This document shows positions 5,425 to 41,300 of a stretch of DNA of 64,000 nucleotides, piece after piece. The DNA is from Eledone cirrhosa (Eukaryota), in assembly GCA_964016885.1 (NCBI GenBank), contig CAXHJY010000264.1, positions 62,001 through 126,000 on the forward strand, given 5' to 3'. Positions within the stretch are counted from its first letter, which is position 1, and every line of letters starts with the position of its first letter. The position numbers were made by a program, and so were the translations under genes. The notes under the pieces are model-generated. The model made no database searches. It saw only the letters and a list, made by a program, of their open reading frames with translations, and had not been told where the DNA came from.

Positions 5425-5700
5425 AAATAATGGTAGTTAAGATGGGGGTTAAATTATCATAGTTGTTTATTGCATTATAAATATTTGTTACATGGTTATT
5501 CATGTGACTTCATCAGATGTTTACGACATTTGCCAAACTACTTCACCACTGGATGGACATACATTGCCACCAACATATCACAATGATTATATAATTGCAC
5601 AAATGATTGCGTAAGCATCTGACGAAGTCACATGAATAACCATGTAACAGATATATATATAATGTAATAAACAATTATGGTGATTTAACTACCAATATTT
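5425..5700. mobile_element. Fold-back element with a degenerate hammerhead motif in each arm (putative inverted Penelope-type pLTR pair)
   Basis: Arms ~5425-5532 and ~5600-5700. Right arm: CAT-CTGACGA-AGTCACATG(AATAAC)CATGTAAC..TATATA-TA-ATG. The left arm reads CTGATGA on the minus strand. The GAAA box is decayed. Confidence 0.6.
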
Positions 5701-5850
5701 CATAAATAAATACTCTGTCACTGAATATCACCTACCTGGGATAAACTACTGGCGTGGAGTGCTTTGGGTCGGTAGGACCTGTTTATTATCAGGAAGCTAC
5801 AACGTAACAAATAAGGTAAACAACACTCTCATACAACTATATATATATAT

Positions 5851-6125
5851 ATTCAAAATATTAACAAAATAGATATTCTTGTGATCAAGTATATTTTATT
5901 ATACATATTTCAGAGGTACTGAGTTAAGTTCAACAGTACGTCCTCATCAGATAAAATAAGATGATGCATGACATACCCTGACATAGTAGATGGTTAAGAT
6001 TCAGTCATGGTAGTGAATCTTATTTTATCTGAAGACGTACTGTTGAACTTAACTCAGTACCTCTGAAAAATATATAATAAAATATACTTGATCACAAGAA
6101 TATCTATTTTGTTAATATTTTGAAT
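5851..6125. mobile_element. Fold-back element, arms 5851-5962 and 6017-6125, with a hammerhead motif in each arm
   Basis: Arms are near-identical reverse complements starting at a (TA)n tract. Minus strand 5958-5892: TATTTTAT-CTGATGA-GGACGTACTG(12)CAGTACCTCT-GAAA-TATGTA-TA-ATAAAATA. Confidence 0.78.
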
Positions 6126-6136
6126 TAATATTAAAT

Positions 6137-6521
6137 ACAAAGTAAAACCTACTACAGTCAGTAGGCATCTCTAACAAAATACACCCCCGTCCCACCACCC
6201 CCACCCCATCGACACCGCCCCTTTCAATGTAAAGTTATGTTGGTGTCACAACATCCAGCCCGAAACAAATGAGGTCGTGTAGGTGTCACAACAAAAAAAC
6301 ACACAGTCCACGCTGTAATGTGGCCATGTAGGCAACACGGTAAAAACCTCCCAGCCCCACACTGTAAATGTGGTTGGTGTTAGGAAGGGCATCCAGCTGT
6401 AGAAAACCCGCCAGACAGTCCTATGCGAGCAAGACAACCACTCTTGCCTCAAGTGGGAAAACTCCCATCCAAACCCATGCAAGCGTGGAACATGGACGTT
6501 AAACGATGATGATGATGATGA
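6137..6521 (+). mobile_element. RTE 3' UTR-only truncated copy
   Basis: Highly similar to 17497-17875; ends with (GAT)n. Confidence 0.88.
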
Positions 6522-6859
6522 TTAATAACTCTGGAAAACCTTTTTCAGTTGAGTGCTTCCAATCTATTGTAAAACTCATACTTTGATGTATTCATTGGAC
6601 CTTGTTTAGCTTTTAAATATATATATATATATATCATATTGCTGGTCCTTCATCAGTTTCAACAATGGGTATTCTAGTTATTTGATCAACTGTATAACCT
6701 CCTCATGAAATTAACATGTAAGTGTTCCATAGACACATGTACCTTTCATGCAATTATTAAGAAGATTCAATGACAAACTGTGTGACAAGGCTGGCTATAT
6801 GAAATACAGGTACAACTCATTTTTTCCAGTCGAGTTATTGGAGCACCTACAAATATAGT

Positions 6860-7051
6860 GTCCTATCCCATACATCTCTTTTGTACCCAAGATCTGCATT
6901 GTGTATATTTTATAGAATTTATGCCAACTCCTTTTCTACATATCGAACATGGCCATTTCCCTGATGGAATCGGAGTTTTGTCCTCCTTTCAACTCATCAA
7001 CGCTTTTGTCTTAGCTAGGTTCACTCTCAGTCCTCTTGATTCCAACTGCTG
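6860..7051 (-). mobile_element. RTE internal fragment (finger region)
   Basis: Closely matches 22705-22895 (QQLESRGLRVNLAKTK..PSGKWPCSICRKG). Confidence 0.8.
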
Positions 7052-7086
<35 letters not shown>

Positions 7087-7164
7087 GGAGGTGAGTTTTA
7101 TTGTAGTACAATAAAGCAATGCAGATATCGGATAAGAAGCACTCTACAGTTTGTAGGACTGGAG

Positions 7165-7479
7165 TATACATAATATATAAGAACAAAAGATGGTTAAAAG
7201 AGTTCCATGTATTTTATTATGCGCATTTCAAAAACAAATATCATCATGCAATAATATTTGTGTTTTCATCAGATAAAACAGGAAGACATGATATGAAGGT
7301 TAAAAAACACTTGTGGATAGTGCTGATTTAAAACTGCACTATCCACAAGTGTTTTTTAACCTTCATATCATGTCTTCCTATTTTATCTGATGAAAACACA
7401 AATATTATTGCATGATGATCTTTGTTTTTGAAATGAGCATAATAAAATACATGGAACTCTTTTAACCATCTTTTGTTCT

Positions 7480-7492
<13 letters not shown>
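7165..7492. mobile_element. Near-perfect hairpin element (arms ~7165-7323 and 7336-7492, 12-nt loop) with hammerheads in both arms
   Basis: The arms are reverse complements with few mismatches; the right arm runs into (TA)n. Confidence 0.85.
7379..7449 (+). ncRNA. Type I minimal hammerhead ribozyme (mirror copy at 7210-7280, minus strand)
   Basis: TATTTTAT-CTGATGA-AAACACAAA..TTTGTTTTT-GAAA-TGAGCA-TA-ATAAAATA: 8-bp helix I and intact core boxes. The mirror copy has a palindromic TGCGCA helix III. Confidence 0.78.
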
Positions 7493-7510
<18 letters not shown>

Positions 7511-7511
<1 letters not shown>

Positions 7512-8762
7512 CATCATCATCGTTTAAAGTTCATCTTCCACGCTTGCATGGGTTTGGATGGGAATTTTCCCACTTGAGGCAAGATTGGTTGTCTTGCTCG
7601 TATAAGACTGTCTGGCGGGTTTTCTACGGCTGGATGCCCTTCCTAACACCAACCACGTTTACAGTGTGGACTGGGAGGTTTTTACTGTGTTACCTACACG
7701 GCCACATTACAGCGTGGACTGTGTGTTTTTGTCGTGACACCTACACGACCTCATTTGTTTCGGACTGGATGTTGTGGTACCAACATAACTTTACATTGAA
7801 GGGGAGGGGGGTGTATTTTTGTTAGAGGTGCCTACTGACTGTAGGTTTCGCTTTGTACTTAGGCAAAGCGGGTCTTCTGTATTACTGTGTAGCGCCAAAG
7901 ATCTCGGTCCAGTGACATTACCTTGTAGAGGTGTAAGTGTGTGAGGTCGGAATTTATCAAGTCGTCCCAGGTTTTTCTGGGTCTGCCTACTCTGTGACTA
8001 CCGTCTATTTTTATCGCCCTGCACTTTTTTATACAGCTGTCGTCTTTCATGCGCATCACGTGACCATACCAACGTAGTCTTCTCTCGAGTAAACAACATC
8101 TGATCCCTCTTATTCCTAATTTCTACCTTAGTTAGTTTATGCTTTGCCGTTCACGTATATTACTATTACACATCCAGCGGAGCATGCAAGCTTCGTTCCT
8201 CTCCAGTCTGCGTATATCCTCTGCACACAATGCCCAAGTCTCACTGCCATACAACATTGCTGTTCGTATGCAGGCATCATACAGCCTGCCTTTCATTTTT
8301 AGAGAGAACCCTTTAGCGGCCAATAGTGGTATAAGCTCTCTGAACTTTTCCATCCCGTTCTGACTCTAGCTACTGTACTTTCAGAGCACCCTCCCCCACT
8401 GCTGATTTTGTCACCCAGGTAACAGAAGGTGTCCACTATTTCTATAGAACCATCTGGGCAATGGAATGAGCTAGTATTCTGTGGGCACTTGCTGCTACTT
8501 ATTGCACCAGAGGACCGGCCACATATAAAATCTATATTCTTAGTTAGCTTACCTGTGATCGCACTACATCTTTTATGTACCCATACTTTGCATTTGGGAC
8601 ATAAAATGGAGTTTCTGCCTACTCCTTTCCCACACACTGAGCATGGCCATTTCCAAGATGGGACCGGTGCTTTCCCTCCTACAAACTAGAACTTTAGTCT
8701 TAGCCAGGTTAATTGTAAGGCCTTTTGATTCTAGGCCATGCTTCCGGGCTGGGAATTTCTTC
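7511..8762 (-). mobile_element. 5'-truncated, frameshifted RTE copy of the same family as 17939-21922
   Basis: ORF pieces 7859-8059, 8132-8353 and 8299-8637 are nearly identical to the long ORF's C-terminus. (ATC)n tail at 7511. Confidence 0.92.
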
Positions 8763-8880
8763 CATATATATATGGAAGAAATTCCATATATATATATATA
8801 TATAGTGAAAAATTGAACGGGAACAAAACAGAGAGGCAGTACAAACAAAGGTTTATTAGTTTCACGTTCTTGAGAGTGGG

Positions 8881-8907
<27 letters not shown>

Positions 8908-8915
<8 letters not shown>

Positions 8916-9408
8916 TAAAATAACAGATTAAAGTTTAAGCAAAGAATCGCTGCTTTCACCCTTAACGGAATCTTCTGAAACTAACAAAGTCTACGACTTC
9001 TGCTATACCATTTACGTGGTTTTGTCTTTGCGTGCTATTGTTCTCCATGCTCCACATATGACGTATTATCTTCCTTTTTTTCGTTCATTGCCAGAGAACG
9101 TCTCTATGAACCACCTAATAGAATATTAGTCTACGACTTCTTTTATACCATAAACGTGGTTCTGTCTTTGCGCGTAATTGTTTTTCACCGCTCCTATTAA
9201 TGACGTATTATTCGTTTTTTTCCCGTTCTTTGCCAGCGAACGTCACCATGAACCAAAGTATCGTCTTCCTGTCTTCCTCCGGTTGCAACGTTTTTTTAAA
9301 TATCCACTTCTACGTTTACAGATTGACTTTGTTAGTTTCAGAAGATCCTGTTAAGGGTGAAAGCAGCGATTCTTTGCTTAAACTTTAATCTGTTATTTTA
9401 ATAAATAT
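8908..9408. mobile_element. Fold-back element: ~84-bp terminal inverted repeats (8908-8991 / 9325-9408) with a hammerhead-like motif and an internal ~140-bp tandem duplication
   Basis: Right arm: AGTTT-CAGAAGA-TCCTGTTAAGGGT-GAAA-GCA(9)TGC-TT-AAACT. Internal repeats begin GTCTACGACTTC at 8989 and 9129. Confidence 0.72.
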
Positions 9409-9444
9409 TTGCTCTAGGGTTCTTATATATTTGATATATATTTA

Positions 9445-9879: not shown

Positions 9880-12180
9880 GGAAAAAATATGACCCCGACG
9901 GCAGAGCTCAAGCCGTTTCGACGGCTATTTCTGGACTAAATTAAAACTTTTAGCCTGGTAAATAAATAGCAGAACTTGTCAAGGGGGTACTTCCTTATAT
10001 GGGAAGATTGTTGTTGTCGAGAGGATTGGTCAAAATTTGTTGTAAACACAAATAAGTCTATCATGGCATTTGGTGGGAGGTAGGGGTGGCTGAACTTGCC
10101 TGTAGAACAGTGAGGGAGTGAGTGGAGCCGGTCAAGCGTTGAAAGTGAAATCTATACAGCAGATTCTAAGGATAGTGTAAGAAAAGTCAAAAAAGTGTTC
10201 TGGGGAAAATGGAGGAGGGAGGTTATAGAATAAGTAAGTCAGATGAGAGTAGGAGACAATAAAAAATAATAGAAAGAAATATAAAAAAAAATATATATAA
10301 AATTAGATAGTGAGAAATGAATAAAAAAACAAACAAAAACAGTAGAGTCTAGAAACTGCTCTAATTAGTAGGTGTTGCTTGTACGGCCAAAGCTATAGAA
10401 AAGGTTAATAAGTTGAGAATGGAAAATACTAAATAAGAAATTTTGAAATTGTAGAATTGAAGTAGTAAGAAAAAAGATACCAAAATACAGGGGTCTAACA
10501 CATCTGCTATAAATAGTTAGTAAAGCGTAATCGGCCAATTCTATCTTAAAATTACAGGGGTGGGGGTACTGAGGCTATAGCGGACCGATGGGCTGCATCG
10601 GGGTAGACAAAAGGGGAAAAACAGACTAGGAGGAAGATCGGGGGTGGAAGGAAGTGATAGGATGAGACGGGGGGAAGAAGAAAACTTAGGAAAAGAAAAG
10701 CAGTACGTATGTCTACCTATGTAAGCTGGGGTTTCCTCTAACTTATTCGGCAAGTGGGGGGTATCAGCCCTTGTCTACCCACCCGGGTCGTTATGGGGTT
10801 TGAGGGTGAGGTAAGTCCTACGCAATCTGTGTTTGCATGCAGTTACCAGTTCGTCTTTCTTGTTTAGGAGTTGGTCCTTCGAAAACAGCATTTGTAATGT
10901 TTCCTCCGAGCATAAGTTACACGGACAGCGTCCTCCCGTGCAAGAGTTAGCTCTGGACAGTAAGCTCCAAGTGAGATTGTATATTATTATCTTTGCGGTC
11001 CCAGATGTGGCCCAAAAGTGTAGTGGCATGTTGCCGGACCGGGTTTCGGAAAGTATGTCGGTGTTGGTAGAGCCGGATCTTGAAGTCACAAGCGGTTAAT
11101 CCTATATAAGCTTTGTTGGAGGTGTCCGTCCTCACATTGCACTGGTAGATCACGTTACGTTCTCGGCATCTGTTGTTAAGGAGGCACATAGATCTATCAG
11201 GGCAGTTACACCTCCTGGTGGACTCTCCACTGATGTCTAGGTTGTTTCTTCCATAGGGGTTGAGATTTTTGTTGTTTGAGGAGACGGTGTTTTGTGCGAA
11301 GTTAGGTGTGGTGCTGTAGGAGAGTTTGATGGTGTTTTTGTTGATTATGTTGTGGTAGCGGTGTTGTAGTGGGAAGTGTTTTTCGAGGAGCCTAAAGAAG
11401 ATTTTCCCAATAGGTGTTGCCACCTCGGCATTGTGGGGAGGATAAAACCACGTTACGTTGCGTGAGCAGCGGTGTCGCTTGCTGGTGCCGCTAAGCGAAG
11501 CTGGATATATGGATATTTCCTCCCGAAAGCCACTCCGCTTGGTTGTAATGAAGCGCATGTTCGTTGAATATCTGCTCATTAGCGGACAAACGAGATATGC
11601 GGGAGATGTTTTTAACCAGGTTATTGGTGATGTTTCTAGGATGGTTAGAGCGGCGGTGGATGTAGTGCAGGTTGTCGTTTGGTTTCCTGTATGGGTAGTA
11701 CAGATCATTTTCTAGGTTAAGTGTAACGTCCAGGAAATTAACTCAGGTTAGGGACGTTTGTAGGGTGATTTTAAATCCCCAGTCCCGGAAGAAGATGATT
11801 AGTTGTTTACGGACCCGGTCTGTACTACTGGCATTGTACTCTTTGAGGGTGAGGAGCCCATCATCTCGGTACAGTCCACCACCGAATGCAGGAAACATTT
11901 CGGTGAGTTTAAATAGTAGGAATAATCCTATAAGATCTGTAACCTCGGCCGATTCCGTCGCACCCATACTCACGTCGAAGGGGGAGTCGGGAGCTCTCTT
12001 TATCCACTTGGAGTTGTCGAAAAGTAGGACTGTCTTCCTGGCGTGGAGAATGATATTTCTTTCCTGGTCAGTGATGGGTGTGAGTGTTTCGGCAAAGTCC
12101 AAGGTGGCCGTAAGGAGTGGTAAGGTAATTCATACATAGTAACTCTCTATGTCAAACTGGATGAATTTTGTGTCTCGTTT
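9880..12180 (-). mobile_element. Decayed, 5'-truncated Penelope-like element (RT + GIY-YIG endonuclease, 3' hammerhead)
   Basis: Minus-strand peptides FIQFDIESYY, VSMGATESAE, GLYRDDGL and NFLDVTLNL (RT); CNC..C linker; VIYQC..AYIGLT..FKIRLYQH (GIY-YIG). Broken by frameshifts and stops; the 3' end abuts (TA)n at 9863-9879. Confidence 0.9.
9891..9990 (-). ncRNA. Type I hammerhead ribozyme, U3-A8 core variant, at the Penelope 3' end
   Basis: Minus strand ACCCCC-TTGACAA-GTTCTGCTATTT..AAATAGCCGTC-GAAA-CGGC(TTGAGCTCT)GCCG-TC-GGGGT. Predicted GUC cleavage between 9897 and 9896. Confidence 0.75.
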
Positions 12181-12681: not shown

Positions 12682-13707
12682 ACACCCGGATGTAACGCAT
12701 GCGCAAACTAAGTACACAAAACACAAAAACAAAATGGTGGAGGACAGAGAACAAAGGAGAGACACACAAAATATAAACCTAGTCACTGAGCAGGTCACAG
12801 AATGTGTGACAAAAGAGTTTTGACAATATATAAATAACCTTCCTGCTATCGAACCAACCAACCATAAATTTATAATAAATTGAAGTGAAAACCAACAGGT
12901 GTGTGTGTTTTTATTGGCAGCATGACCCTCCCAAAGTATAACAATATATATATATATATATATAAATAGTTCAAGGATAAAACATAAAAAAATCAAATAT
13001 AAAAACACGATCTATTCTTTTGGCCAAATTTTTTTGTTGATAATTTCCAGATTAAGTAAAGTATTGAACAATAAGTAAAACATATCTTAGTAGGCCTGAG
13101 CGATATAATTCATTTGAAGGTTAAAGTTCTATATTGCTGTAGAGATACAGTATTATCTCGTAATATCCTATCATGATATTTAGCAAAGAATATATTTTAA
13201 AATGTGTTTGTTAATTCAAATGTTTATAGTATCTTTACTAGTGAACAGTTTGTTGTGAAAGTAAAGACTAATTTTTAAAGTCATTGTTATGTTTTATATT
13301 TGCTAATCTCATTTCATGAGATACTGTCGGGTCTGAAATAACGTGTGTGTTGGGGAGGGGGTGGCTCAGTAACTTTTTTAGGTTGTTTCCGCTGATATTA
13401 TAAAAAACCAGAATTAGTCATTTAGTTTACATATTGAGACCTCAACCCATCCTATTTATTTTATAATGTATTGGATTTCTAGTAATGCACTTTTTTTTTG
13501 TTACGTACAATGTTTTTTAATGTCTAAGGAAAATTAAGTGTTACAAGAATGCTACCACTTAAAATAAAATTCCGCCAGAGATAGATTAGCAACAATAAAT
13601 TAACAGAGGGGCACACTGAAAAACTATGGGGGTTAGGGCGATTATTTGAGACTCAAGAGTACAGAACATTAAGAAACAAAATAAAAAATAGATCAACTGT
13701 ACATTTT

Positions 13708-15019: not shown

Positions 15020-16856
15020 TTACGGCATCCAGGGACTCCAGGCACCTCATTACAAAGGTTGACATGAGGAATGCCTTCAATTGCATATGCTGGGACCATC
15101 TGCTCGAGGCCTGCCTCAGCCAAGCCCCCACTGCCTACCCACTGGCCTACCTATCATATGCTCCTTGCTGCTGATACAGTCATACCTTCAGCCACTTGGG
15201 TCCAACAGGAGGGGCGATCCTTTGGACGCCCCTCCTGTTTGCCCTTGGTATAGACCACATCGTCCGGAGTATCACAGCCCCTCTCAACGTTTGGTACCTG
15301 GATGATGCTACGTTGGGTGGGCTTGTGGAGACTGTCTGCCATGACCTACAATCGGTGGTTCCTGCCAGGGCAGCAATCAGCCTCCAGGTCAACTTGTCCA
15401 AGTCTGAGGTGGTGAATATCAACTATGATGCTGAGAGCTTTGCAGCCTCCGTCTCGGACGTGCGGTCCATTCTCCACCAGGTACAGGTGACCCCTAAAGA
15501 AGATATCCTCATCCTCGGGTCACCGATCCACCTGCCAGCCATCCACTCCACCATCAGGTCCAAGCTTCAACAACTCCAGACTCTCATGTGCAACTGGGCT
15601 TGATTGACGGCCACCCAGCTCTCTTCCTGTTGAGGAACTGTTTCGCCATGCCAAAACTCCTCCATACTCTTTGCAGCGCTCCGTGCTAACAGCCACGCAT
15701 CTCTCCTCACTGACCTCGACACTTGTATCCGAACAGCAGCTGAGGAGATAAGTAACGTCAGGTTTGACGACATTGGGTGGTAACAGGCCACCTTACCCAT
15801 TAAATATGGTGGCCTTGGCCTGCGTTTCTTTCATCGGTAAACTCATGCCGCGTCCTCATCAACAAGGTTCTTTTAAAAACAATGGAACCTACTGTGATCG
15901 AAGAATATGAGGTCACCTGCGAAACGTGGGACCGGCTTGGACTTAGCCCAGTAGATGTCCCTTTCCTCCTGCTGATGTCAAATCCCCCCAAAGTATTTGG
16001 GATGCTGCCCAATGCGCCTGGCCTCAGACAGGCTAGCGCGCCAGCTCGACCAGCACTGCTTTGCACATTCTTGCATGGCCTCACAGCCCCACAGCAGTGA
16101 CTGGCTCCATGCCTTACCCTCCTTCTCCACTGGCACGCAGCTGGACAATGATAGCCTGAACATCAGAGTTTCCCTGAGGCTTGGCCTCCAGATCTGCGAT
16201 CCACACAAATGTCACTGCGGATCCACCATGTACTCTTTTGGCCTCCACCCACTTTCCTCTCGCTATAGTACCAGCCGCCTTCCACGCCATGCTGCCCTCA
16301 ACGAGTCATAAAGCATGGTTTGGATGCTGCAAGCTTCCCGTCCCAGCTCAAGCCAGTGGGGCTGGACTGAGAGGACGGCAAAAGGTCAGATGGCATGACC
16401 ATCTTCTCGTTCCGTGGTGGCAAACCCCTCGTCTGGGATGCCACTTGTGGCGAGACTTTCTGCAGCTGCAACCTGGTGCAGTCTTTGACTGACCCAGGTC
16501 GGGCTGAGGAGGCCAAACTCTCCAAGTACCGGTCGCTCGCCGACAGGTTCGCGTTCATGCCATTGGCAGTGGAGAATTCTGGTGTCCTTGGCCCTAGGGT
16601 TACCTCCCTACTTACCACCATAGGCGTTAAGCTGGCCAGCCACAGGTGTGAGCCTCCCGAGATGGAATGGCTCCGGGGAAACACCTTCTCCATCCTGTCC
16701 ACCGGGGCTGTGGGGAGGCCAACACATGGGACCCCATTTGATCACCATAAAGAGAGATGGGGAGGGCGAGAGAGATGGAGGCGATGACAGTGGGAGTTCG
16801 GCTCTTCTGTGTTCCGACCTGGTGCGCAGCATCAGTTGTCCATAGGGAGGAAGTGA

Positions 16857-17143: not shown

Positions 17144-17196
17144 TATAGATAGATACATACATACAAATATATATATATAAATATATAAATATATAT

Positions 17197-17875
17197 ACAC
17201 GTGAACGGCAAAGCATAAACGAACTAAGGAAAAAATTAGAAATAAGAGGGATCAGATGTTGTTTACTAGAGAGAAGGCTACGTTGGTATGGACACGTGAT
17301 GCGCATGAAAGACGACAGCTGTATAACAAAGCGCAGGGCAATAAAGATAGACGGTAGTCACGGAATAGGCAGACCCAGAAAAACCTGGGACGAGCTGATA
17401 AACTCCGACCTCACACACTTACACCTCTCCAAGACAATGTCACTGGACCGAGACCTTTGGCGGTACTCAGTAACAGAGAAGACCCGCCTTACCTAAGTAC
17501 ATAGTAAAACCTACTACAGCCAGTAGGCATCTCTAACAAAATACACCCCCGTCCCACCACGCCACCCCGTTCTATGTAAAGTTATGTTGGTGCCACAACA
17601 TCCAGGCCGAAACAAATGAGATCGTGTAGGTGTCACGACAAAAAAACACACAGTCCACGCTGTAATGTGGCCGTGTAGGCAACACGGTAAAAACCTCCCA
17701 GACCCACACTGTAAATGTGGTTGGTGTTAGGAAGGGCATCCAACTGTAGAAAACCTGCCAGACGGTCCTATGCGAGCAAGACAATCACTCTTGCCTCAAG
17801 TGGGACTACCTCCGTCCAAACCCATGCAAGCGTGGAACACGGACGTTAAACGCTGATGATGATGATGATGATGAT
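17197..17875 (+). mobile_element. 5'-truncated RTE copy directly upstream of the full-length element
   Basis: Near-identical to 21258-21922; retains the native stop (..KTRLT*). Confidence 0.92.
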
Positions 17876-17938
17876 ATATATATATATATATATACATATA
17901 CACATATACACATATATATATATATATACATATATATA

Positions 17939-20900
17939 TTTTTTTGTTATCTATTTAAGGTTTAAATACGGTGTTTTTGTCGGTGTAAGGTTTAAATACG
18001 GTGTTTTTGTCGTATTGAACAGAACAAATCTTGCAGTTTTGCTTTTTGTTAAATCGCTTGTTAAACATTCATAACCTTCCAGCTAGCTACCCCACACCCC
18101 TCCCACCCGCCCCCACACACCACCCGCCCCCACACACCACCATACTTAATACGTGGACCAATCATAAGCCAGAGCCCCCCCCCCACGCATCACCATTATT
18201 ATTATAAGCCAGAGCCCCCCCCCACCCCCACGCATCACCATTATTATTATTACGCGGACCAATCATAAGCCAGAGGCCTATACTATCGCTTGCCCGGTTG
18301 CCTTCGATATATGATGGATGGATGGACGGACTGCGGAATCCTGGAGAGTGGATGGGAGAGAAAAATCTGGACGCTCAGAACGAAAATGCCAAAGTTAAAG
18401 TCAAATTCACCTCGTGGACGAGAATGCGAGCACTCCTCTTTGTTTCGTCCGCGGATGGCTAACGTAACCCTATCTCCCCCCGCCCCCCACCACCCCCACC
18501 CTCCAAACGCAACCCAAAACTTCAGAGTTGGTACCATAAATGTAGGCACCCTAAAGGGTCGCGCTAACGAGGTTGTAGAAATGCTTGAACGTAAGGAGGT
18601 CGATGTTTGTTGTATTCAAGAGACCAGGTGGAGGGGTGGGTCTGCTAGATTCATTGAGGGTAAAAAACGATGTTATAAGCTTTTCTGGGTGGGAAACGAC
18701 GATGGGCTGGGTGGAGTAGGAATCATGATAGCAGAAAAGTGGGCAGATAAGATAATAGACGTAAATAGAGTGAACGACAGAATAATTAAAATAAGACTTG
18801 TCCTCAATAGAACTACGGTGACAGTAATATCTGCGTGCGCACCCCAATCCGGACTGCCCGGCACTATAAAAGACAGATTCTATGAGACACTGTTGCTAAC
18901 TACCTCCCAAATATCTGACCGTGACTATATAATTATTGCAGGCGACCTAAATGGTCACGTTGGACAACATTGTGACGGCTACGACGAAATCCATGGAGGC
19001 TATGGGTTTGGTACTAGAAATGAGGAAGGCTCCAGAATCCTGGAATTCTGTGATGCAAATAACCTAACTATCTGTAACACTAACTTCAAAAAACGTGACA
19101 ATCACCTGATCACCTATAGATCAGGGGAACACACAAGCCAGGTAGATTATATCCTTACCAGAAGACGTGACAGAGTGTCTGTTGTAAACACTAAATCCCT
19201 CCCCCATGAAAAATGCACCTCCCAACATAGACTGATAATTAGCGACCTCATAGTCAGGACGAGACGTACTCGACAGCAGAAGAGGACTATCCTCAGGAGG
19301 AAAATATGGAAACTAAAGGACCTCACAGCCAGAAATAAATTTCAAAGCATATTACTTGATGCTTTCGACAGTAAGGAAGAGCATCTAGAATCGGACAATA
19401 TAGAGGGACAGTGGGAATTTCTGAAAGCAAACCTGCTGTTGGCGACAGACGAAGTCTGTGGCTGGAGCAGGCCTGTAGGCAGGAGGAGAGTAACATGGTG
19501 GTGGAACAGTAGGGTGGAGGGGTCAATTAAGGCCAAAAAGCAGGCTTGGAAAGTATGGCGGGATGGGGGAAGTAGAGTAGACTATCAAGTGGCCAGGAGG
19601 GAAGCCAGGAGAGAAGTGTACTTAGCAAGAAGGGAAGCTGAGGAAAGAAAGTTCAAGCATGTTCTACAACGCGATGACCAAAAACGTGAGGTGTTCAGGA
19701 TTGCCAGGCAATGCGTCAAGGAAAACCGTGATATTGTCGGGGAGAAGTGTGTACTTAACGATGATGGCATACTTGCCATCACCGACACTGATAAGAAGGT
19801 AGCTTGGAAGTGTCACTATGAAAGGCTACTAAATGAGGAGAATAAATGGGAGAAAGACAGTCTCCCCCATATCGACCCGATAGAGGGACCAGCAGTGTTA
19901 GTCGAGGGGAGTATAATAAGTAAGGCAATCAAGGATATGAAGACGGGTAAGGCGGCTGGGCCTTCGGAAATAGTTGCTGAGATGCTGAAGGCATCTGGCA
20001 CGGTGGGACAGACCATGGTCACCCGCATAGTTAACCAAGTCGTACAGAATGGGGTTGTTCCGAAGGACTGGCATAGCAGCATCATCGTTAACTGTTATAA
20101 GGGTAAAGGAGACGCCCTAGATAGGAGTAACTATAGAGGCATTAAATTAATCGACCAGGTCATGAAGGTCACGGAAAAAGTAATAGCGCAACTAATCAGA
20201 GAGAGAATTGACCTAGATGAAATGCAGTTCGGGTTTGTGTCGGGCAAAAGCACCACAGACGCTCTTTTCATAGTACGACAACTACAGGAGAAGTACCTAG
20301 CTAAAGGTAAACCCCTCTACTTAGCTTTTGTCGACCTGGAGAAAGCCTTCGACAGAGTCCCCCGCTCCATTATCTGGTGGGCTCTTAGAAAACTAGGCGT
20401 TGACGAATGGCTTGTGAGGGCTATACAAGCCATGTATAAAGAAACAGTCAGCAAGGTTAGAATTAACAACGAATATAGTGAAGAGTTTAGCGTAAAAGTT
20501 GGCGTCCATCAGGGCTCTGTTCTCAGCCCCCTACTATTTATTATTGCCCTTCAGGCTATAACAGAGGAGTTCAAGACAGGATGCCCAAGGGAACTCCTAT
20601 ACGCAGACGACCTGACACTCATAGCGGAATCAATGGCCGAGCTAGAGAAGAAATTCCAAACATGGAAGCACGGCCTAGAGTCAAAAGGACTTAAAATTAA
20701 CCTGGCTAAGACCAAAGTTCTAGTTTGTAGGAAAGAAAACAAGGCGGTGGTCCCTTCTGGGAAATGGTCGTGCTCGGTGTGTAGGAAAGGCGTAGGTAGA
20801 AACTCCATTTTATGTCCTAAATGCAAAGTATGGGTGCATAAAAGATGTAGTGGGATCACAGGTAAGCTAACTAAGAACATAGATTTTACATGTGGCCGGT

Positions 20901-21922
20901 GTTCTGGTGCAATAAGTAGCAGCAAGTGCCCACGAAATACTAGCTCTTTCAATTGCGCAGAGGGTTCTATAGAAATAGTGGACAGCTTCCGTTACCTGGG
21001 CGATAAAATCAGCAGTGGGGGAGGGTGCTCTGAAAGTACTGTAGCTAGAGTCAGAACTGGTTGGAAAAAGTTCAGAGAGCTTATACCACTATTAGCTGCT
21101 AAAGGGTTCTCCCTAAAAATGAAAGGCAGGTTGTACGATGCCTGCATACGAACAGCAATGTTGCATGGTAGTGAGACCTGGGCATTGTGTGCAGAGGATA
21201 TACGCAGACTAGAGAGGAACGAAGCTTGCATGCTCCGCTGGATGTGTAACAGTAATATACGTGAACGGCAAAGCATAAACGAACTAAGGAAAAAATTAGA
21301 GATAAGAGGGATCAGATGTTGTTTACTCGAGAGAAGGCTGCGTTGGTATGAACACGTGATGCGCATGAAAGTCGATAGCTGTATAACAAAGTGCAGGGCA
21401 ATAAAGATAGACGGTAGCCACGGAATAGGCAGACCTAGAAAAACATGGGATGAGCTGATAAACTCCGACCTCACACACTTACACCTCTCCAAGACAATGT
21501 CACTGGACCGAGACCTTTGGCGGTACTCAGTAACAGAGAAGACCCGCCTTGCCAGTAGGCATCTCTAACAAAATACACCCCGTCCCGCCACCACCCCCAC
21601 CCCATCCACACCACCCCGTTCTATGTAAAGTTATGTTGGTGCCGCGCCATCCAGGCCGAAACAAATGAGATCGTGTAGGTGTCACGACAAAAAAACACAC
21701 AGTCCACGCTGTAATGTGGCCGTGTAGGCAACACGGTAAAAACCTCCCAGACCCACACTGTAAATGTGGTTGGTGTTAGGAAGGGCATCCAACTGTAGAA
21801 AACCTGCCAGACAGTCCTATGCGAGCAAGACAATCACTCTTGCCTCAAGTGGGACTACCCCCGTACAAACCCATGCAAGCGTGGAACACGGACGTTAAAC
21901 GTTGATGATGATGATGATGATG
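17939..21922 (+). mobile_element. Near-full-length RTE-clade non-LTR retrotransposon (5' UTR, single ORF, 3' UTR, (GAT)n tail), flanked by (TA)n tracts
   Basis: Contains the APE-RT ORF. The 3' UTR matches copies at 6137-6521, 7511-7860 (rc) and 17497-17875, and ends GGACGTTAAACG(TGA)n. The 5' boundary is taken as the end of the TA tract at ~17938. Confidence 0.9.
18290..21568 (+). CDS. RTE LINE polyprotein: apurinic-type endonuclease + reverse transcriptase with an embedded C4HC3 finger (real start possibly the ATG at 18455)
   Basis: 1092-aa open frame. APE motifs GTINV, IQETR, AGDLNGH, QVDYIL, SQHRL. RT motifs NYRGIKL, QFGF, FVDLEKAFD, GVHQGSVLSPLLF, YADD, FRYLG. RTE-type C-terminus RRLRWY.HV and GRPRKTW. 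Confidence 0.93.
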   Translation: MPGCLRYMMDGWTDCGILESGWERKIWTLRTKMPKLKSNSPRGRECEHSSLFRPRMANVTLSPPAPHHPHPPNATQNFRVGTINVGTLKGRANEVVEMLERKEVDVCCIQETRWRGGSARFIEGKKRCYKLFWVGNDDGLGGVGIMIAEKWADKIIDVNRVNDRIIKIRLVLNRTTVTVISACAPQSGLPGTIKDRFYETLLLTTSQISDRDYIIIAGDLNGHVGQHCDGYDEIHGGYGFGTRNEEGSRILEFCDANNLTICNTNFKKRDNHLITYRSGEHTSQVDYILTRRRDRVSVVNTKSLPHEKCTSQHRLIISDLIVRTRRTRQQKRTILRRKIWKLKDLTARNKFQSILLDAFDSKEEHLESDNIEGQWEFLKANLLLATDEVCGWSRPVGRRRVTWWWNSRVEGSIKAKKQAWKVWRDGGSRVDYQVARREARREVYLARREAEERKFKHVLQRDDQKREVFRIARQCVKENRDIVGEKCVLNDDGILAITDTDKKVAWKCHYERLLNEENKWEKDSLPHIDPIEGPAVLVEGSIISKAIKDMKTGKAAGPSEIVAEMLKASGTVGQTMVTRIVNQVVQNGVVPKDWHSSIIVNCYKGKGDALDRSNYRGIKLIDQVMKVTEKVIAQLIRERIDLDEMQFGFVSGKSTTDALFIVRQLQEKYLAKGKPLYLAFVDLEKAFDRVPRSIIWWALRKLGVDEWLVRAIQAMYKETVSKVRINNEYSEEFSVKVGVHQGSVLSPLLFIIALQAITEEFKTGCPRELLYADDLTLIAESMAELEKKFQTWKHGLESKGLKINLAKTKVLVCRKENKAVVPSGKWSCSVCRKGVGRNSILCPKCKVWVHKRCSGITGKLTKNIDFTCGRCSGAISSSKCPRNTSSFNCAEGSIEIVDSFRYLGDKISSGGGCSESTVARVRTGWKKFRELIPLLAAKGFSLKMKGRLYDACIRTAMLHGSETWALCAEDIRRLERNEACMLRWMCNSNIRERQSINELRKKLEIRGIRCCLLERRLRWYEHVMRMKVDSCITKCRAIKIDGSHGIGRPRKTWDELINSDLTHLHLSKTMSLDRDLWRYSVTEKTRLASRHL

Positions 21923-26700: not shown

Positions 26701-27140
26701 ATATATAGTGAGACAGACTGACATATATATATAGTGAGACAGACTGACATATATATAGTGAGACAGACTGACATATATATATAGTGAGACAGACTGACAT
26801 ATATATATAGTGAGACAGACTGACATATATATAGTGCGACAGACTGACATATATATATAGTGAGACAGACTGACATATATATAGTGAGACAGACTGACAT
26901 ATATATATAGTGAGACAGACTGACATATATATAGTGAGGCAGACTGACATATATATATAGTGAGACGGACTGACATATATATAGTGAGACAGACTGACAT
27001 ATATATAGTGAGACAGACTGACATATGTATATAGTGAGACAGACTGACATATATATATAGTGAAACAGACTGACATATATATAGTGAGACAGACTGACAT
27101 ATATATAGTGAGACAGACTGACATATATATAGTGAGACAG

Positions 27141-27265
27141 TCTGTCTCACTATATCTATATGTCAGTCTGTCTCACTATATATATGTCAGTCTGTCTCAC
27201 TATATATATGTCAGTCTGTCTCACTATATATATGTCAGTCTGTCTCACTATATCTATATGTCAGT
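27141..27265 (-). repeat. Inverted block of ~5 satellite monomers
   Basis: Units read TGTCAGTCTGTCTCACTATATA; junctions GAGACAG-T-CTGTCTC and TGTCAG-T-CTGACA. Confidence 0.95.
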
Positions 27266-30200
27266 CTGACATATATATAGTGAGACAGACTGACATATAT
27301 ATATAGTGAGACAGACTGACATATATATATAGTGAGACAGACTGACATATATATAGTGAGACAGACTGACATATATATATAGTGAGACAGACTGACATAT
27401 ATATAGTGAGACAGACTGACATATATATATAGGGAGACAGACTGACATATATATAGTGAGACAGACTGACATATATATAGTGAGACAGACTGACATATAT
27501 ATATAGTGAGACAGACTGACATATATATATATAGTGAGACAGACTGACATATATATAGTGTGACAGACTGACATATATATAGTGAGACAGACTGACATAT
27601 ATATAGTGAGACAGACTGACATATATATATAGTGAGACAGACTGACATATATATAGTGAGACAGACTGACATATACATAGTGACACAGACTGACATATAT
27701 ATATATATAGTGAGACAGACTGACATATATATATAGTGAGACAGACTTACATATATATAGTGAGACAGACTGACTTATATATAGTGAGACAGACTGTCAT
27801 GGATATATAGTGAGACAGACTGACATATATATATACAGTGAGACAGACTGACATATATATATACAGTGAGACAGACTGACATATATATAGTGAGACAGAC
27901 TGAGACATATATAGTGAGACAGACTGACATATATATAGTGAGACAGACTGACATATATATATAGTGAGACAGACTGACATATATATATAGTGAGACAGAG
28001 TGATATATATATATAGTGAGACAGAGTGACATATATATAGTGAGACAGACTGACATATATATAGGGAGACAGACTGACATATATATATAGTGAGACAGAC
28101 TGACATATATATATAGTGAGACAGACTGACATATATATAGTGAGACAGACTAACATATATATAGTGAGACAGACTGACATATATATAGTGAGACAGACTG
28201 TCATATATATAGTGAGACAGACTGACATATATATAGTGAGACAGACTGATATATATATAGTGAGACAGACTGACATATATATATAGTGAGACAGACTGAC
28301 ATATATATAGTGAGACAGACTGACATATATATAGTGAGACAGACTGAAATATATATATATAGTGAGACAGACTGACATATATATATAGTGAGACAGACTG
28401 ACATATATATAGTGCGACAGACTGACATATATATATAGCGAGACAGACTGACATATATATATAGTGAGACAGACTGACATATATATAGTGAGACAGACTG
28501 ACATATATATATAGTGAGACAGACTGACATATATATATAGTGAGACAGACTGACATATATATAGTGAGACAGACTGACATATATATATATAGTGAGACAG
28601 ACTGACATATATATATAGTGAGACAGACTGACATATATATAGTGAGACAGGCTGACATATATATAGTGAGACAGACTGACATATATATAGTGAGACAGAC
28701 TGACATAAATATAGTGAGACAGACTGACATATATATAGTGAGGCAGACTGACATATATATATAGTGAGACAGACTGACATATATATAGCGAAACAGACTG
28801 ACATATATATAGTGAGACAGACTGACATATATATATAGTGAGACAGACTGACATATATATAGTGAGACAGACTGACATATATATATAGAGACAGACTGAC
28901 ATATATATAGTGAGACAGACTGACATATATATATAGTGAGACAGACTGACATATATACAGCGAAACAGACTGACATATATATAGTGAGACAGACTGACAT
29001 ATATATATAGTGAGACAGACTGACATATATATACTGAGACAGACTGACATATATATATAGAGACAGACTGACATATATATAGAGACAGACTGATATATAT
29101 ATATAGTGAGACAGACTGACACATATATAGTGAGACGACTGACATATATATATAGTGAGACAGACTGACATATATATAGTGAGACAGACTGACATATATA
29201 TAGTGAGACAGACTGACATATATATATAGTGAGACAGACTGACATATATATATAGTGAGACAGACTGACATATATATATAGTGACACAGACTGACATATA
29301 TATAGAGAGACAGACTGACATATATAAATAGTGAGACAGACTGACATATATATAGTGAGACAGACTGACATATATATAGTGAGACAGACTGACATATATA
29401 GTGAGACAGACTGACATATATATATAGTGAGACAGACTGACATATATATAGTGAGACAGACTCACATATATATATAGTGAGACAGACTGACATATATATA
29501 TAGAGACAGACTGACATATATATAGTGAGACAGACTGACATATATATATAGTCAGATAGACTGACATATATATAGCGAAACAGACTGACATATATATAGT
29601 GAGACAGACTGACATATATAAATAGTGAGACAGACTGACATATATATAGTGAGACAGACTGACATATATATAGTGAGACAGACTGACATATATAGTGAGA
29701 CAGACTGACATATATATATAGTGAGACAGACTGACATATATATAGTGAGACAGACTCACATATATATATAGTGAGACAGACTGACATATATATATAGAGA
29801 CAGACTGACATATATATAGTGAGACAGACTGACATATATATATAGTCAGATAGACTGACATATATATAGCGAAACAGACTGACATATATATAGTGAGACA
29901 GACTGACATATATATATCGTGAGACAGACTGACATATATATAGTGAGACAGACTGACATATATATATAGAGGCAGACTGACATATATATAGTGAGACAGA
30001 CTGACATATATATAGAGACAGACTGATATATATATATAGTGAGACAGACTGACACATATATAGTGAGACGACTGACATATATATATAGTGAGACAGACTG
30101 ACATATATATAGTGAGACAGACTGACATATATATAGTGAGACAGACTGACATATATATATAGTGAGACAGACTGACATATATATAGTGAGACAGACTGAC

Positions 30201-36200: not shown

Positions 36201-38207
36201 CAGACTGACATATATATAGTGAGACAGACTGACATAAATATAGTGAGACAGACTGACATATATATAGTGAGGCAGACTGACATATATATATAGTGAGACA
36301 GACCGACATATATATACCGAAACAGACTGACATATATATAGTGAGACAGACTGACATATATATATAGTGAGACAGACTGACATATATATAGTGAGACAGA
36401 CTGACATATATATATAGAGACAGACTGACATATATATAGTGAGACAGACTGACATATATATATAGTGAGACAGACTGACATATATACAGCGAAACAGACT
36501 GACATATATATAGTGAGACAGACTGACATATATATATAGTGAGACAGACTGACATATATATACTGAGACAGACTGACATATATATATAGAGACAGACTGA
36601 CATATATATAGAGACAGACTGATATATATATATAGTGAGACAGACTGACACATATATAGTGAGACGACTGACATATATATATAGTGAGACAGACTGACAT
36701 ATATATAGTGAGACAGACTGACATATATATAGTGAGACAGACTGACATATATATATAGTGAGACAGACTGACATATATATATAGTGAGACAGACTGACAT
36801 ATATATATAGTGACACAGACTGACATATATATAGAGAGACAGACTGACATATATAAATAGTGAGACAGACTGACATATATATATAGTGAGACAGACTGAC
36901 ATATATATAGTGAGACAGACTGACATATATATAGTGAGACAGACTGACATATATATATAGAGAGACAGACTGACATATATATATAGTGAGACAGATTGAC
37001 ATATATATAGTGAGACAGACTGACATATATATAGTGAGACAGACTGACATATATATAGTGAGACAGACTGACATATATAGTGAGACAGACTGACATATAT
37101 ATATAGTGAGACAGACAGACATATATATAGTGAGACAGACTCACATATATATATAGTGAGACAGACTGACATATATATATATAGAGACAGACTGACATAT
37201 ATATAGTGAGACAGACTGACATATATATATAGTCAGACAGACTGACATATATATAGCGAAACAGACTGACATATATATAGTGAGACAGACTGACATATAT
37301 ATATCGTGAGACAGACTGACATATATATAGTGAGACAGACTGACATATATATATAGAGGCAGACTGACATATATATAGTGAGACAGACTGACATATATAT
37401 AGAGACAGACTGATATATATATATAGTGAGACAGACTGACACATATATAGTGAGACGACTGACATATATATATAGTGAGACAGACTGACATATATATAGT
37501 GAGACAGACTGACATATATATATAGTGAGACAGACTGACATATATATAGTGAGACAGACTGACATATATATAGTGAGACAGACTGACATATATAAATAGT
37601 GAGACAGACTGACATATATATATAGTGAGACAGACTGACATATATATAGTGAGACAGACTGACATATATATAGTGAGACAGACTGACATATATATATATA
37701 GTGAGACAGACTGACATATATATATAGTGAGACAGACTGACATATATATAGTGCGACAGACTGACATATATATATAGTGAGACAGACTGACATATATATA
37801 GTGAGACAGACTGACATATATATAGTGAGACAGACTGACATATATATAGTGAGACAGACTGACATATATATATAGTGAGACAGACTGACATATATATATA
37901 GTGAGACAGACTGACATATATATAGTGCGACAGACTGACATATATATATAGTGAGACAGACTGACATATATATAGTGAGACAGACTGACATATATATATA
38001 GTGAGACAGACTGACATGTATATAGTGAGGCAGACTGACATATATATATAGTGAGACGGACTGACATATATATAGTGAGACAGACTGACATATATATAGT
38101 GAGACAGACTGACATATGTATATAGTGAGACAGACTGACATATATATATAGTGAGACAGACTGACATATATATAGTGAGACAGACTGACATATATATAGT
38201 GAGACAG

Positions 38208-38332
38208 TCTGTCTCACTATATCTATATGTCAGTCTGTCTCACTATATATATGTCAGTCTGTCTCACTATATATATGTCAGTCTGTCTCACTATATATAT
38301 GTCAGTCTGTCTCACTACATCTATATGTCAGT
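38208..38332 (-). repeat. Second copy of the inverted satellite block
   Basis: Same length and junctions as 27141-27265, offset by 11067 bp. Confidence 0.95.
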
Positions 38333-41300
38333 CTGACATATATATAGTGAGACAGACTGACATATATATATAGTGAGACAGACTGACATATATATATAGT
38401 GAGACAGACTGACATATATATAGTGAGACAGACTGACATATATATATAGTGAGACAGACTGACATATATATAGTGAGACAGACTGACATATATATATAGG
38501 GAGACAGACTGACATATATATAGTGAGACAGACTGACATATATATATAGTGAGACAGACTGACATATATATATATAGTGAGACAGACTGACATATATATA
38601 GTGTGACAGACTGACATATATATAGTGAGACAGACTGACATATATATAGTGAGACAGACTGACATATATATATAGTGAGACAGACTGACATATATATAGT
38701 GAGACAGACTGACATATACATAGTGACACAGACTGACATATATATATATATATAGTGAGACAGACTGACATATATATATAGTGAGACAGACTTACATATA
38801 TATAGTGAGACAGACTGACTTATATATAGTGAGACAGACTGACATGGATATATAGTGAGACAGACTGACATATATATATACAGTGAGACAGACTGACATA
38901 TATATAGTGAGACAGACTGAGACATATATAGTGAGACAGACTGACATATATATAGTGAGACAGACTGACATATATATATAGTGAGACAGACTGTCATATA
39001 TATATAGTGAGACAGAGTGACATATATATATAGTGAGACAGAGTGACATATATATAGTGAGACAGACTGACATATATATAGGGAGACAGACTGACATATA
39101 TATATAGTGAGACAGACTGACATATATATATAGTGAGACAGACTGACATATATATAGTGAGACAGACTAACATATATATAGTGAGACAGACTGACATATA
39201 TATAGTGAGACAGACTGACATATATATAGTGAGACAGACTGTCATATATATAGTGAGACAGACTGACATATATATAGTGAGACAGACTGATATATATATA
39301 GTGAGACTGATATATATATAGTGAGACAGACTGACATATATATAGTGAGACAGACTGACATATATATAGTGAGACAGACTGACATATATATATATAGTGA
39401 GACAGACTGACATATATATATAGTGAGACAGACTGACATATATATAGTGCGACAGACTGACATATATATATAGTGAGACAGACTGACATATATATATAGT
39501 GAGACAGACTGACATATATATAGTGAGACAGACTGACATATATATATAGTGAGACAGACTGACATATATATATAGTGAGACAGACTGACATATATATATA
39601 GTGAGACAGACTGACATATATATATATATAGTGAGACAGACTGACATATATATATAGTGAGACAGACTGACATATATATAGTGAGACAGGCTGACATATA
39701 TATAGTGAGACAGACTGACATATATATAGTGAGACAGACTGACATAAATATAGTGAGACAGACTGACATATATATAGTGAGACAGACTGACATATATATA
39801 TAGTGAGACAGACTGACATATATATATAGCGAAACAGACTGACATATATATAGTGAGACAGACTGACATATATATATAGTGAGACAGACTGACATATATA
39901 TAGTGAGACAGACTGACATATATATATAGAGACAGACTGACATATATATAGTGAGACAGACTGACATATATATATAGTGAGACAGACTGACATATATATA
40001 GCGAAACAGACTGACATATATATAGTGAGACAGACTGACATATATATATAATGAGACAGACTGACATATATATACTGAGACAGACTGACATATATATATA
40101 GAGACAGACTGACATATATATAGAGACAGACTGATATATATATATAGTGAGACAGACTGACACATATATAGTGAGACGACTGACATATATATATAGTGAG
40201 ACAGACTGACATATATATAGTGAGACAGACTGACATATATATAGTGAGACAGACTGACATATATATATAGTGAGACAGACTGACATATATATATAGTGAG
40301 ATAGACTGACATATATATAGAGAGACAGACTGACATATATAAATAGTGAGACAGACTGACATATATATATAGTGAGACAGACTGACATATATATAGTGAG
40401 ACAGACTGACATATATATAGTGAGACAGACTGACATATATATATATAGTGAGACAGACTGACATATATATATAGTGAGACAGATTGACATATATATAGTG
40501 AGACAGACTGACATATATATAGTGAGACAGACTGACATATATATAGTGAGACAGACTGACATATATAGTGAGACAGACTGACATATATATATAGTGAGAC
40601 AGACTGACATATATATAGTGAGACAGACTCACATATATATATAGTGAGACAGACTGACATATATATATAGAGACAGACTGACATATATATAGTGAGACAG
40701 ACTGACATATATATATAGTGAGACAGACTGACATATATATAGCGAAACAGACTGACATATATATAGTGAGACAGACTGACATATATATATCGTGAGACAG
40801 ACTGACATATATATAGTGAGACAGACTGACATATATATATAGAGGCAGACTGACATATATATAGTGAGACAGACTGACATATATATAGAGACAGACTGAT
40901 ATATATATATAGTGAGACAGACTGACACATATATAGTGAGACGACTGACATATATATATAGTGAGACAGACTGACATATATATAGTGAGACAGACTGACA
41001 TATATATAGTGAGACAGACTGACATATATATATAGTGAGACAGACTGACATATATATAGTGAGACAGACTGACATATATATAGTGAGACAGACTGACATA
41101 TATAAATAGTGAGACAGACTGACATATATATATAGTGAGACAGACTGACATATATATAGTGAGACAGACTGACATATATATAGTGAGACAGACTGACATA
41201 TATATATAGTGAGACAGACTGACATATATATATAGTGAGACAGATTGACATATATATATAGTGAGACAGACTGACATATATATAGTGAGACAGACTGACA

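Follow-up and report, generated by a model that had tools for sequence, protein, structure and literature searches.

The window, meaning the whole 64,000-nucleotide stretch of DNA analysed, carries at positions 7084 to 7489 a compact insertion whose two arms face each other head to head, each with an outward-reading type I hammerhead ribozyme. Three sister elements and a decayed PLE of another family share the window with it. The features are as follows.

7053..7083, unstranded: left (TA)n flank, likely target (from the sequence).
7084..7489, unstranded: complete insertion, running from the tail through the inverted arm and the centre to the direct arm, with a (TA)n tract on each side (from the sequence; family reads cover 7094-7492).
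7084..7169, minus strand: one-sided tail of about 86 nt (family read depth 7096-7169; same layout in locus L083 and at other loci).
7139..7165, minus strand: variant of stem-loop H1, with ACTC, 4-bp stem, 7-nt loop, UA bulge and GAGT-GC-T (descriptor).
7170..7323, minus strand: left arm, inverted, 5'-shortened, carrying the tail (inverted-repeat comparison).
7210..7280, minus strand: type I hammerhead, left copy, with palindromic helix III ATGCGCAT and one G.U pair in helix I.
7324..7335, plus strand: 12-nt centre, the 5' leader of the right copy, absent from the left arm (public reads).
7336..7489, plus strand: right arm, direct, tail-less, stopping 4 nt before the H1 position (inverted-repeat comparison).
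7379..7449, plus strand: type I hammerhead, right copy, with core 7387-7393, helix II 7394-7429 and GAAA 7430-7433.
7490..7511, unstranded: right (TA)n flank, likely target, continuing into the microsatellite end of a LINE copy (from the sequence).
5448..5838, unstranded: sister element, a decayed head-to-head hammerhead pair with arms 75% alike and a right tail with an H1 variant at 5712.
5851..6616, unstranded: sister element with arms at 5851-6131; a LINE 3' fragment at 6132-6522 separates these from its likely tail, which has an H1 variant at 6528.
8908..9425, unstranded: sister element with 84-bp arms and core CAGAAGA (one core change), its right end meeting a partial GCTC hairpin.
9880..12129, minus strand: decayed Hydra-type PLE of another family, with RT, C-terminal nuclease region and CxCX5C linker.

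The long hairpin that had been proposed from the letters is real. As an inverted repeat it spans 7165-7323 and 7336-7494, with 159-bp arms, a 12-nt centre and four arm mismatches (7169/7490, 7223/7436, 7239/7420 and 7279/7380). Because the outermost five positions pair only flanking TA or mismatch, the true arms are 7170-7323 and 7336-7489, 154 bp with three mismatches. The insertion is larger than the hairpin first described. Non-TA letters reach left to about 7084, and an 86-nt tail prolongs the left arm on that one side only; read mapping masked 7066-7093 as repeat, and the limit at 7084 is taken from the sequence letters alone. The tail at 7084-7169 would correspond to the beginning of the 5' UTR in the parent element. 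Cruciform extrusion of the palindrome is possible, and the structure is explained without it. If transcribed, such copies would yield 150-bp double-stranded RNA. On its own, the 7165-7492 hairpin is an unremarkable member of a high-copy repeat family.

Both arms keep CTGATGA and GAAA, as the sequence-only reading had noticed, and helix I of the right arm is indeed TATTTTAT/ATAAAATA. The type I descriptor finds three helices, CUGANGA/GAAA cores and an NUH site in both copies; it has three sites in the first 23,788 bases (7387 plus, 7272 minus and 5950 minus) and none in each of 200 shuffles. Cleavage of the right copy is predicted after 7441 on the plus strand. The 8-bp helix I said to recur in the element at 5851-6125 does recur there. 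The palindromic helix III claimed for both arms stands for the left copy (ATGCGCAT) and falls for the right (plus) copy, which has ATGAGCAT and is broken at 7436; the family majority keeps the palindrome, with C at 7436 in 180 of the 263 covering reads of run X21. The right copy had also been called intact, which its predicted helix III self-duplex of -4.6 kcal/mol, against -12.5 for the left copy, does not support. The first helix II pair is A-U and not G10.1-C11.1, with G.U in many reads, and A/U occurs also in 3 of 50 hammerheads from other loci. Helix II variants listed among the reads are all pairing-compatible (A>G opposite U, U>C opposite G).

Cleavage as a dimer had been suggested and is not supported at this locus. 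The two copies lie on opposite strands, leaving one sense ribozyme per transcript, and the ribozymes therefore cannot dimerise in cis. Read-through RNA is predicted to fold as a long hairpin (-233.8 kcal/mol) and not as a hammerhead (-2.8). The retrozyme reading likewise fails, there being no tandem array at the locus; a non-LTR retrozyme was rejected because a head-to-tail array of at least two hammerhead units was found neither here nor among the read joints listed. The proposed kinship with PLE-type hammerheads that have a short palindromic helix III survives, in agreement with PMC4209133, the motif table of PMC8557442 and 50 hammerheads in Hydra-type loci. Rfam on the window gave nothing at gathering score and, at E up to 10, no hammerhead family, only sub-threshold miRNA/snoRNA matches. 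Minimum-energy folds of the hammerheads and the tail are no better than those of shuffles. The hammerhead pattern has two matches in viral contigs, both discarded as chance AT-rich sequence.

Public reads were aligned from four of 23 runs listed, using records matching at least 80%. Family records number 4869, 32, 27 and 4960 in the four runs, which carry three organism labels; the family is thus high in copy. Loose ends before 7324 are present in all four runs and agree near the junction; measured over 30 letters, their agreement reaches 0.61 in X1 and 0.80-0.86 in the remaining runs. Among the 15 joints listed, 11 connect different left points (7114 to 7241) to 7324. Other copies start 1-8 nt upstream of 7324, most often with (A)TATGT, and all 12 spacers among those listed measure 1-8 nt and end in the same few letters. 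The start of one arm is nearly fixed, about 68 nt upstream of the core, a regularity that is partly reference-bound in that short contigs favour short spacers; the other arm is cut at variable points. A fixed start combined with a variable second arm suggests that the palindrome is built at insertion. Right ends also vary among copies (mirror positions 7165, 7175 and 7185). Loose ends of X4 and X21, which bear two organism labels, have 16 letters in common 15-30 nt upstream of the fixed start; these may stem from a longer parent's 3' UTR or from an old insertion common to both, and their consensus is absent from the window. RNA editing as the source of an A>G and T>C excess was dismissed, the records being DNA and the reference AT-rich.

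The head-to-head inverted copy, the tail and the (TA)n target are published PLE and Hydra marks, and for this reason we assign the insertion to a PLE, most likely of the Hydra clade. An inverted 5'-truncated copy with a one-sided tail is a mark of PLEs, and (TA)n targets are described for Hydra (PMC8557442, PMC3846280). The family has what is expected of an EN+ PLE insertion, a head-to-head inverted 5'-truncated copy of variable length and a one-sided tail, and the (TA)n insertion typical of the Hydra clade is evident in the flanks at 7053-7083 and 7490-7511 and in the loose ends of reads. The hairpin arms very probably originate from a PLE end. Membership of the source PLE in the Hydra clade is likely. 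The insertion itself has no ORF; of the Hydra protein marks (RWK, DKT, a CxCX5C linker and no CCHH), CxCX5C was read in a neighbouring ORF, and RxRW, DKT and CxCX5C in the relatives of that ORF. Like the Hydra clade of PMC8557442, the window element sits in (TA)n, has a type I hammerhead near its 3' end with U before GAAA, and contains an inverted 5'-truncated copy, as does Penelope-13_HM; a family of that clade is listed in Octopus. Unlike the clade, it has no ORF, and its tail measures about 86 nt compared with a published 30-40. The layout also resembles paired minimal hammerheads, 100-700 bp apart and one on each strand, which have been ascribed to truncated PLEs and have palindromic helix III and low in vitro activity (PMC4209133). 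These differ in having G10.1-C11.1 as the first helix II pair, A-U here, and a helix I of 4-5 bp, here 8 bp.

The decayed PLE at 9880..12129 (minus) shows that the Hydra clade is present in the host genome. Its frame at 12129-10775 (minus) has the Hydra-type CxCX5C linker, and its relatives carry RxRW, DKT and CxCX5C (20 of 150 listed relatives aligned). A word-index protein search with the C-terminal piece gave 0 of 149 candidates, Pfam was blank for all three window PLE pieces and four of five relatives, and the protein has no relative among viral contigs. We considered this ORF as the parent of the hairpin family and rejected it, since its 3' end differs. It ends about 900 nt past its stop in a degenerate hammerhead-like motif (9880-9960, minus), followed by (TA)n.

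For wider comparison, 84 Hydra-type loci were collected with a five-sequence alignment, and 41 of them carry a sense hammerhead. In 50 locus hammerheads helix III measures 8 nt in 3 and 9 nt in 37; the window copy has 8 nt, with a helix II of 36 nt. Two stretches, L083:6663-7074 and L083:6022-6260, are structural twins of the window insertion, and the latter matches the 3' end of L086, an ORF-bearing locus of the same assembly. Whereas the window insertion has its tail on the shorter arm, L041, L044 and L048 have theirs on the long copy, and in L083 one full-length inverted pair lacks a tail at either end; arm and tail are therefore not strictly coupled. In two ORF-bearing loci the pLTR starts more than 220 nt upstream of the core. 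None of the 84 fetched loci resembles the window family at the DNA level, the tail pattern has 0 matches in metagenome contigs, and an ORF-bearing parent was not found among the 84 loci, the metagenome contigs or the window. Five contigs filed in bacterial MAGs (L082-L086) carry Hydra-type PLEs with (TA)n flanks and are most likely eukaryotic contamination of bacterial bins. At L083 5700-8537, at least four hammerhead-bearing families adjoin or nest at (TA)n tracts, like the cluster at 5448-9425 of the window.

A conserved stem-loop was first suspected from a by-eye comparison of the window tail with published Hydra consensus ends. The Hydra-type layout is GCTC, inner stem, loop, 2-nt bulge and GAGC-ACT. 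In the consensus sequences of PMC8557442 the GCTC…GAGCAC hairpin can be seen by eye in Hydra-2_Amil, Hydra-2_Ajap and Hydra-1_Ajap, with a near match in Hydra-1_Crog. The strict descriptor finds it in sense in 21 of the 84 loci and in antisense in 2, and with a covariance model built from 20 locus hairpins the 84 loci yield 64 hits at E up to 1, a figure that counts the training rows. When sites were picked by letters only, 34 of 64 form at least three inner pairs after a 2-nt bulge, while bulges of 0, 1 and 3 nt yield 2, 1 and 3 such sites. This letters-only pick is the fair pairing test, counts on an alignment of pairing-chosen rows being circular. The first three inner pairs of 38 hairpins contain G.U and A.C at 10 vs 3, an excess that mildly supports folding as sense RNA.

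The hairpins come in pairs, H1 and H2. In 22 5' UTRs the two are spaced 55-83 nt apart, with the ATG 15-45 nt after H2. Mapped alignment ends, that is, insertion ends comparable with a longer copy of the same family, fall 0-6 nt before a hairpin in 16 of 21 cases (about 10 families; seven rows from one family). Eight of these 16 are tailed and stop before H2, and eight are tail-less and stop before H1. The remaining five lie 33, 33, 33, 33 and 47 nt from a hairpin; we interpret four as breaks in the alignment of different subfamilies and one as the junction of an inversion. In the window, H1 begins the tail, 4 nt past the tail-less end of the right arm. It has ACTC/GAGT-GC, the loci mostly GCTC/GAGC-AC, and it scores 9.9 bits with the covariance model (E 8.9), which places it 32nd of 33 and under the noise from microsatellites. 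The loosened descriptor RCTC…GAGY-RCT, adopted after this variant was seen and with two further sites found afterwards, has exactly three sites in the first 23,788 bases (5712, 6528 and 7165), all downstream of hammerhead arms; the shuffle mean is 0.11 and 0 of 200 shuffles reach three. In the window's four elements, the tail-less end stops short of H1 by 4, 5, 2 and 11 nt. Rfam on 12 of the 84 loci returned only three sub-threshold miRNA matches. Neither the hairpin pair nor its relation to insertion ends is described in the literature searched, in the text and supplement of PMC8557442 or in Rfam. The head-to-head tailed architecture was already known; the two-hairpin rule is what merits testing.

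Taken together, we consider it highly probable that the insertion is a short, protein-free, head-to-head pair of hammerhead repeats in (TA)n, likely made by a Hydra-clade PLE protein that likely copied from just upstream of two stem-loops. The RNA would begin about 68 nt upstream of the hammerhead core and run through the hammerhead and an AU-rich patch to H1 and then H2. By analogy with the in vitro work in PMC11167929, the RT/GIY-YIG protein would cut both strands of AT-rich DNA, and reverse transcription would begin at two internal sites. The pattern of ends that we see, 0-6 nt upstream of H1 and of H2, may result from two such starts, giving one tail-less and one tailed copy, with a tail length that would equal the H1-H2 spacing. 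The H1 start would be used on one target strand and the H2 start on the other. One cDNA would run to the 5' end of the RNA, producing the fixed start, and the other would stop variably before the two are joined head to head. The palindrome would then be rebuilt at each insertion, and the genomic copy would be a by-product, probably inert. That H1 and H2 set the RT start sites is, in our judgement, somewhat better than an even proposition. More tentatively, and a little short of even, the doubled stem-loop (GCTC, inner stem, 2-nt U bulge, GAGC-ACU) may be a start marker for the telomerase-related RT of the Hydra clade, each subunit of a protein dimer binding one hairpin, copying from 0-6 nt upstream of it and priming from one strand of the (TA)n cut. 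The fixed start may correspond to the transcription start in an ORF-bearing parent, for which the balance again tips slightly the other way; otherwise it would be the edge of a short non-autonomous master.

Known PLEs offer partial parallels. The Anolis Poseidon element PAc has in vitro two internal RT start sites that bound the tail, as we propose for the window insertion; its protein cleaves AT-rich DNA on both strands and extends each of them, and hammerhead cleavage is dispensable for its insertion (PMC11167929). The PAc sites lie inside the ORF at one AC-rich stem-loop, whereas the sites proposed for Hydra-type elements lie in the 5' UTR, each just before its own hairpin copy. The Penelope pLTRs of Adineta vaga and Drosophila virilis resemble the window insertion in their head-to-head junction, one 5'-shorter arm and an optional tail on one arm; they differ in flanking ORFs and in having 8-10 bp target duplications (PMC3846280, PMC2377424). 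The same sources propose self-priming on an antisense template, in contrast to the two priming events suggested here. The Penelope promoter lies inside the pLTR, and transcripts start within the upstream pLTR (PMC2377424).

The alternatives differ mostly in what sets the ends and in what served as the source. The main rival keeps the PLE origin but lets base-pairing between UAU(A) patches of the RNA and the nicked (TA)n target set the ends; H1 and H2 would then serve in translation, in protein binding for packaging or in DNA recognition for tandem insertion, for example. In its favour, nearly all mapped ends finish in TAT/TATA and then run into (TA)n, and PMC11167929 cites earlier work in which endonuclease recognition of DNA needed tail sequence. 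Yet the 3' UTRs hold many more AT-rich patches and the mapped ends cluster at two; the RT start sites of the Anolis element are not homologous to the cut DNA (PMC11167929); and the 10 vs 3 ratio of G.U to A.C mildly favours folding of the sense RNA. We regard this account as unlikely. Somewhat doubtful is the idea that the family stems from a non-autonomous master only about 250 nt long, either a PLE-dependent SINE or a retrozyme monomer, with no surviving ORF-bearing parent. The near-fixed 5' start and the high copy number would suit it, and animal retrozymes have been proposed as pLTR derivatives (bioRxiv 10.64898/2026.07.22.740005). The non-LTR retrozymes of that preprint share with the window insertion a short non-coding unit, a type I hammerhead and pLTR kinship, but they are head-to-tail arrays and the insertion is one head-to-head pair. 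Besides the missing tandem array, no tail-to-start joint occurs among the 15 listed, and the 16 letters upstream of the start, common to two organism labels, hint at longer parents.

Two further explanations were weighed. A long near-perfect inverted repeat with TA flanks and high copy number is what a MITE or fold-back DNA transposon would leave, with hammerhead motifs falling by chance in its terminal inverted repeats; against it, the centre varies by copy, one end has an extra 86 nt, right ends vary and the twins derive from PLE 3' ends, so that we hold it to be very improbable. A read or assembly fold-back artefact is still less credible, to the point of being negligible: no single record spans the whole locus, as an artefact would allow, but the three arm differences, the asymmetric centre made of family sequence, the one-sided tail and head-to-head joints in both contigs and raw reads speak against it.

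If true, the start-marker rule would by itself account for the presence and length of the tail, for the head-to-head palindromes and for the many mini-insertions, which would be run-off copies that begin in the 5' UTR and reach the transcription start. PMC8557442 calls the formation of tails and inverted copies in PLEs unresolved, and one PLE has so far been tested in vitro (PMC11167929). Hairpin positions predict both insertion ends in about 10 families, which makes the tail question testable through a 25-nt motif. At the DNA level, the hairpin also offers a means of placing fragments without an ORF in a clade.

Other repeats share the window. A stop-free frame of 1099 aa at 18269-21568 (plus) encodes AP-endonuclease and RT with a PHD finger after the RT core, and we presume this LINE to be RTE-like. 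Its fragments occur at 6132-6522, 6863-7053, 7480-8762, 17188-17900 and elsewhere; the first of these interrupts the 5851 element precisely at the AT patch that separates its arm from its tail, and is bordered left and right by TAATA. Broken frames at 15050-16790 (plus) presumably resemble a non-LTR retroelement protein, and two pieces of them gave no Pfam match. Nested inverted repeats lie at 403-622 / 865-1119 and 302-427 / 1308-1436, with a related piece at 12922-12963 (within 12690-12963); hammerhead-like remnants in the 302-1436 and 12690-12963 repeats fail the type I descriptor. The 40 kb from 23789 to 64000 consist of a 24-bp satellite repeated about 1620 times, with short inverted patches at about 27138-27268 and 38205-38335.
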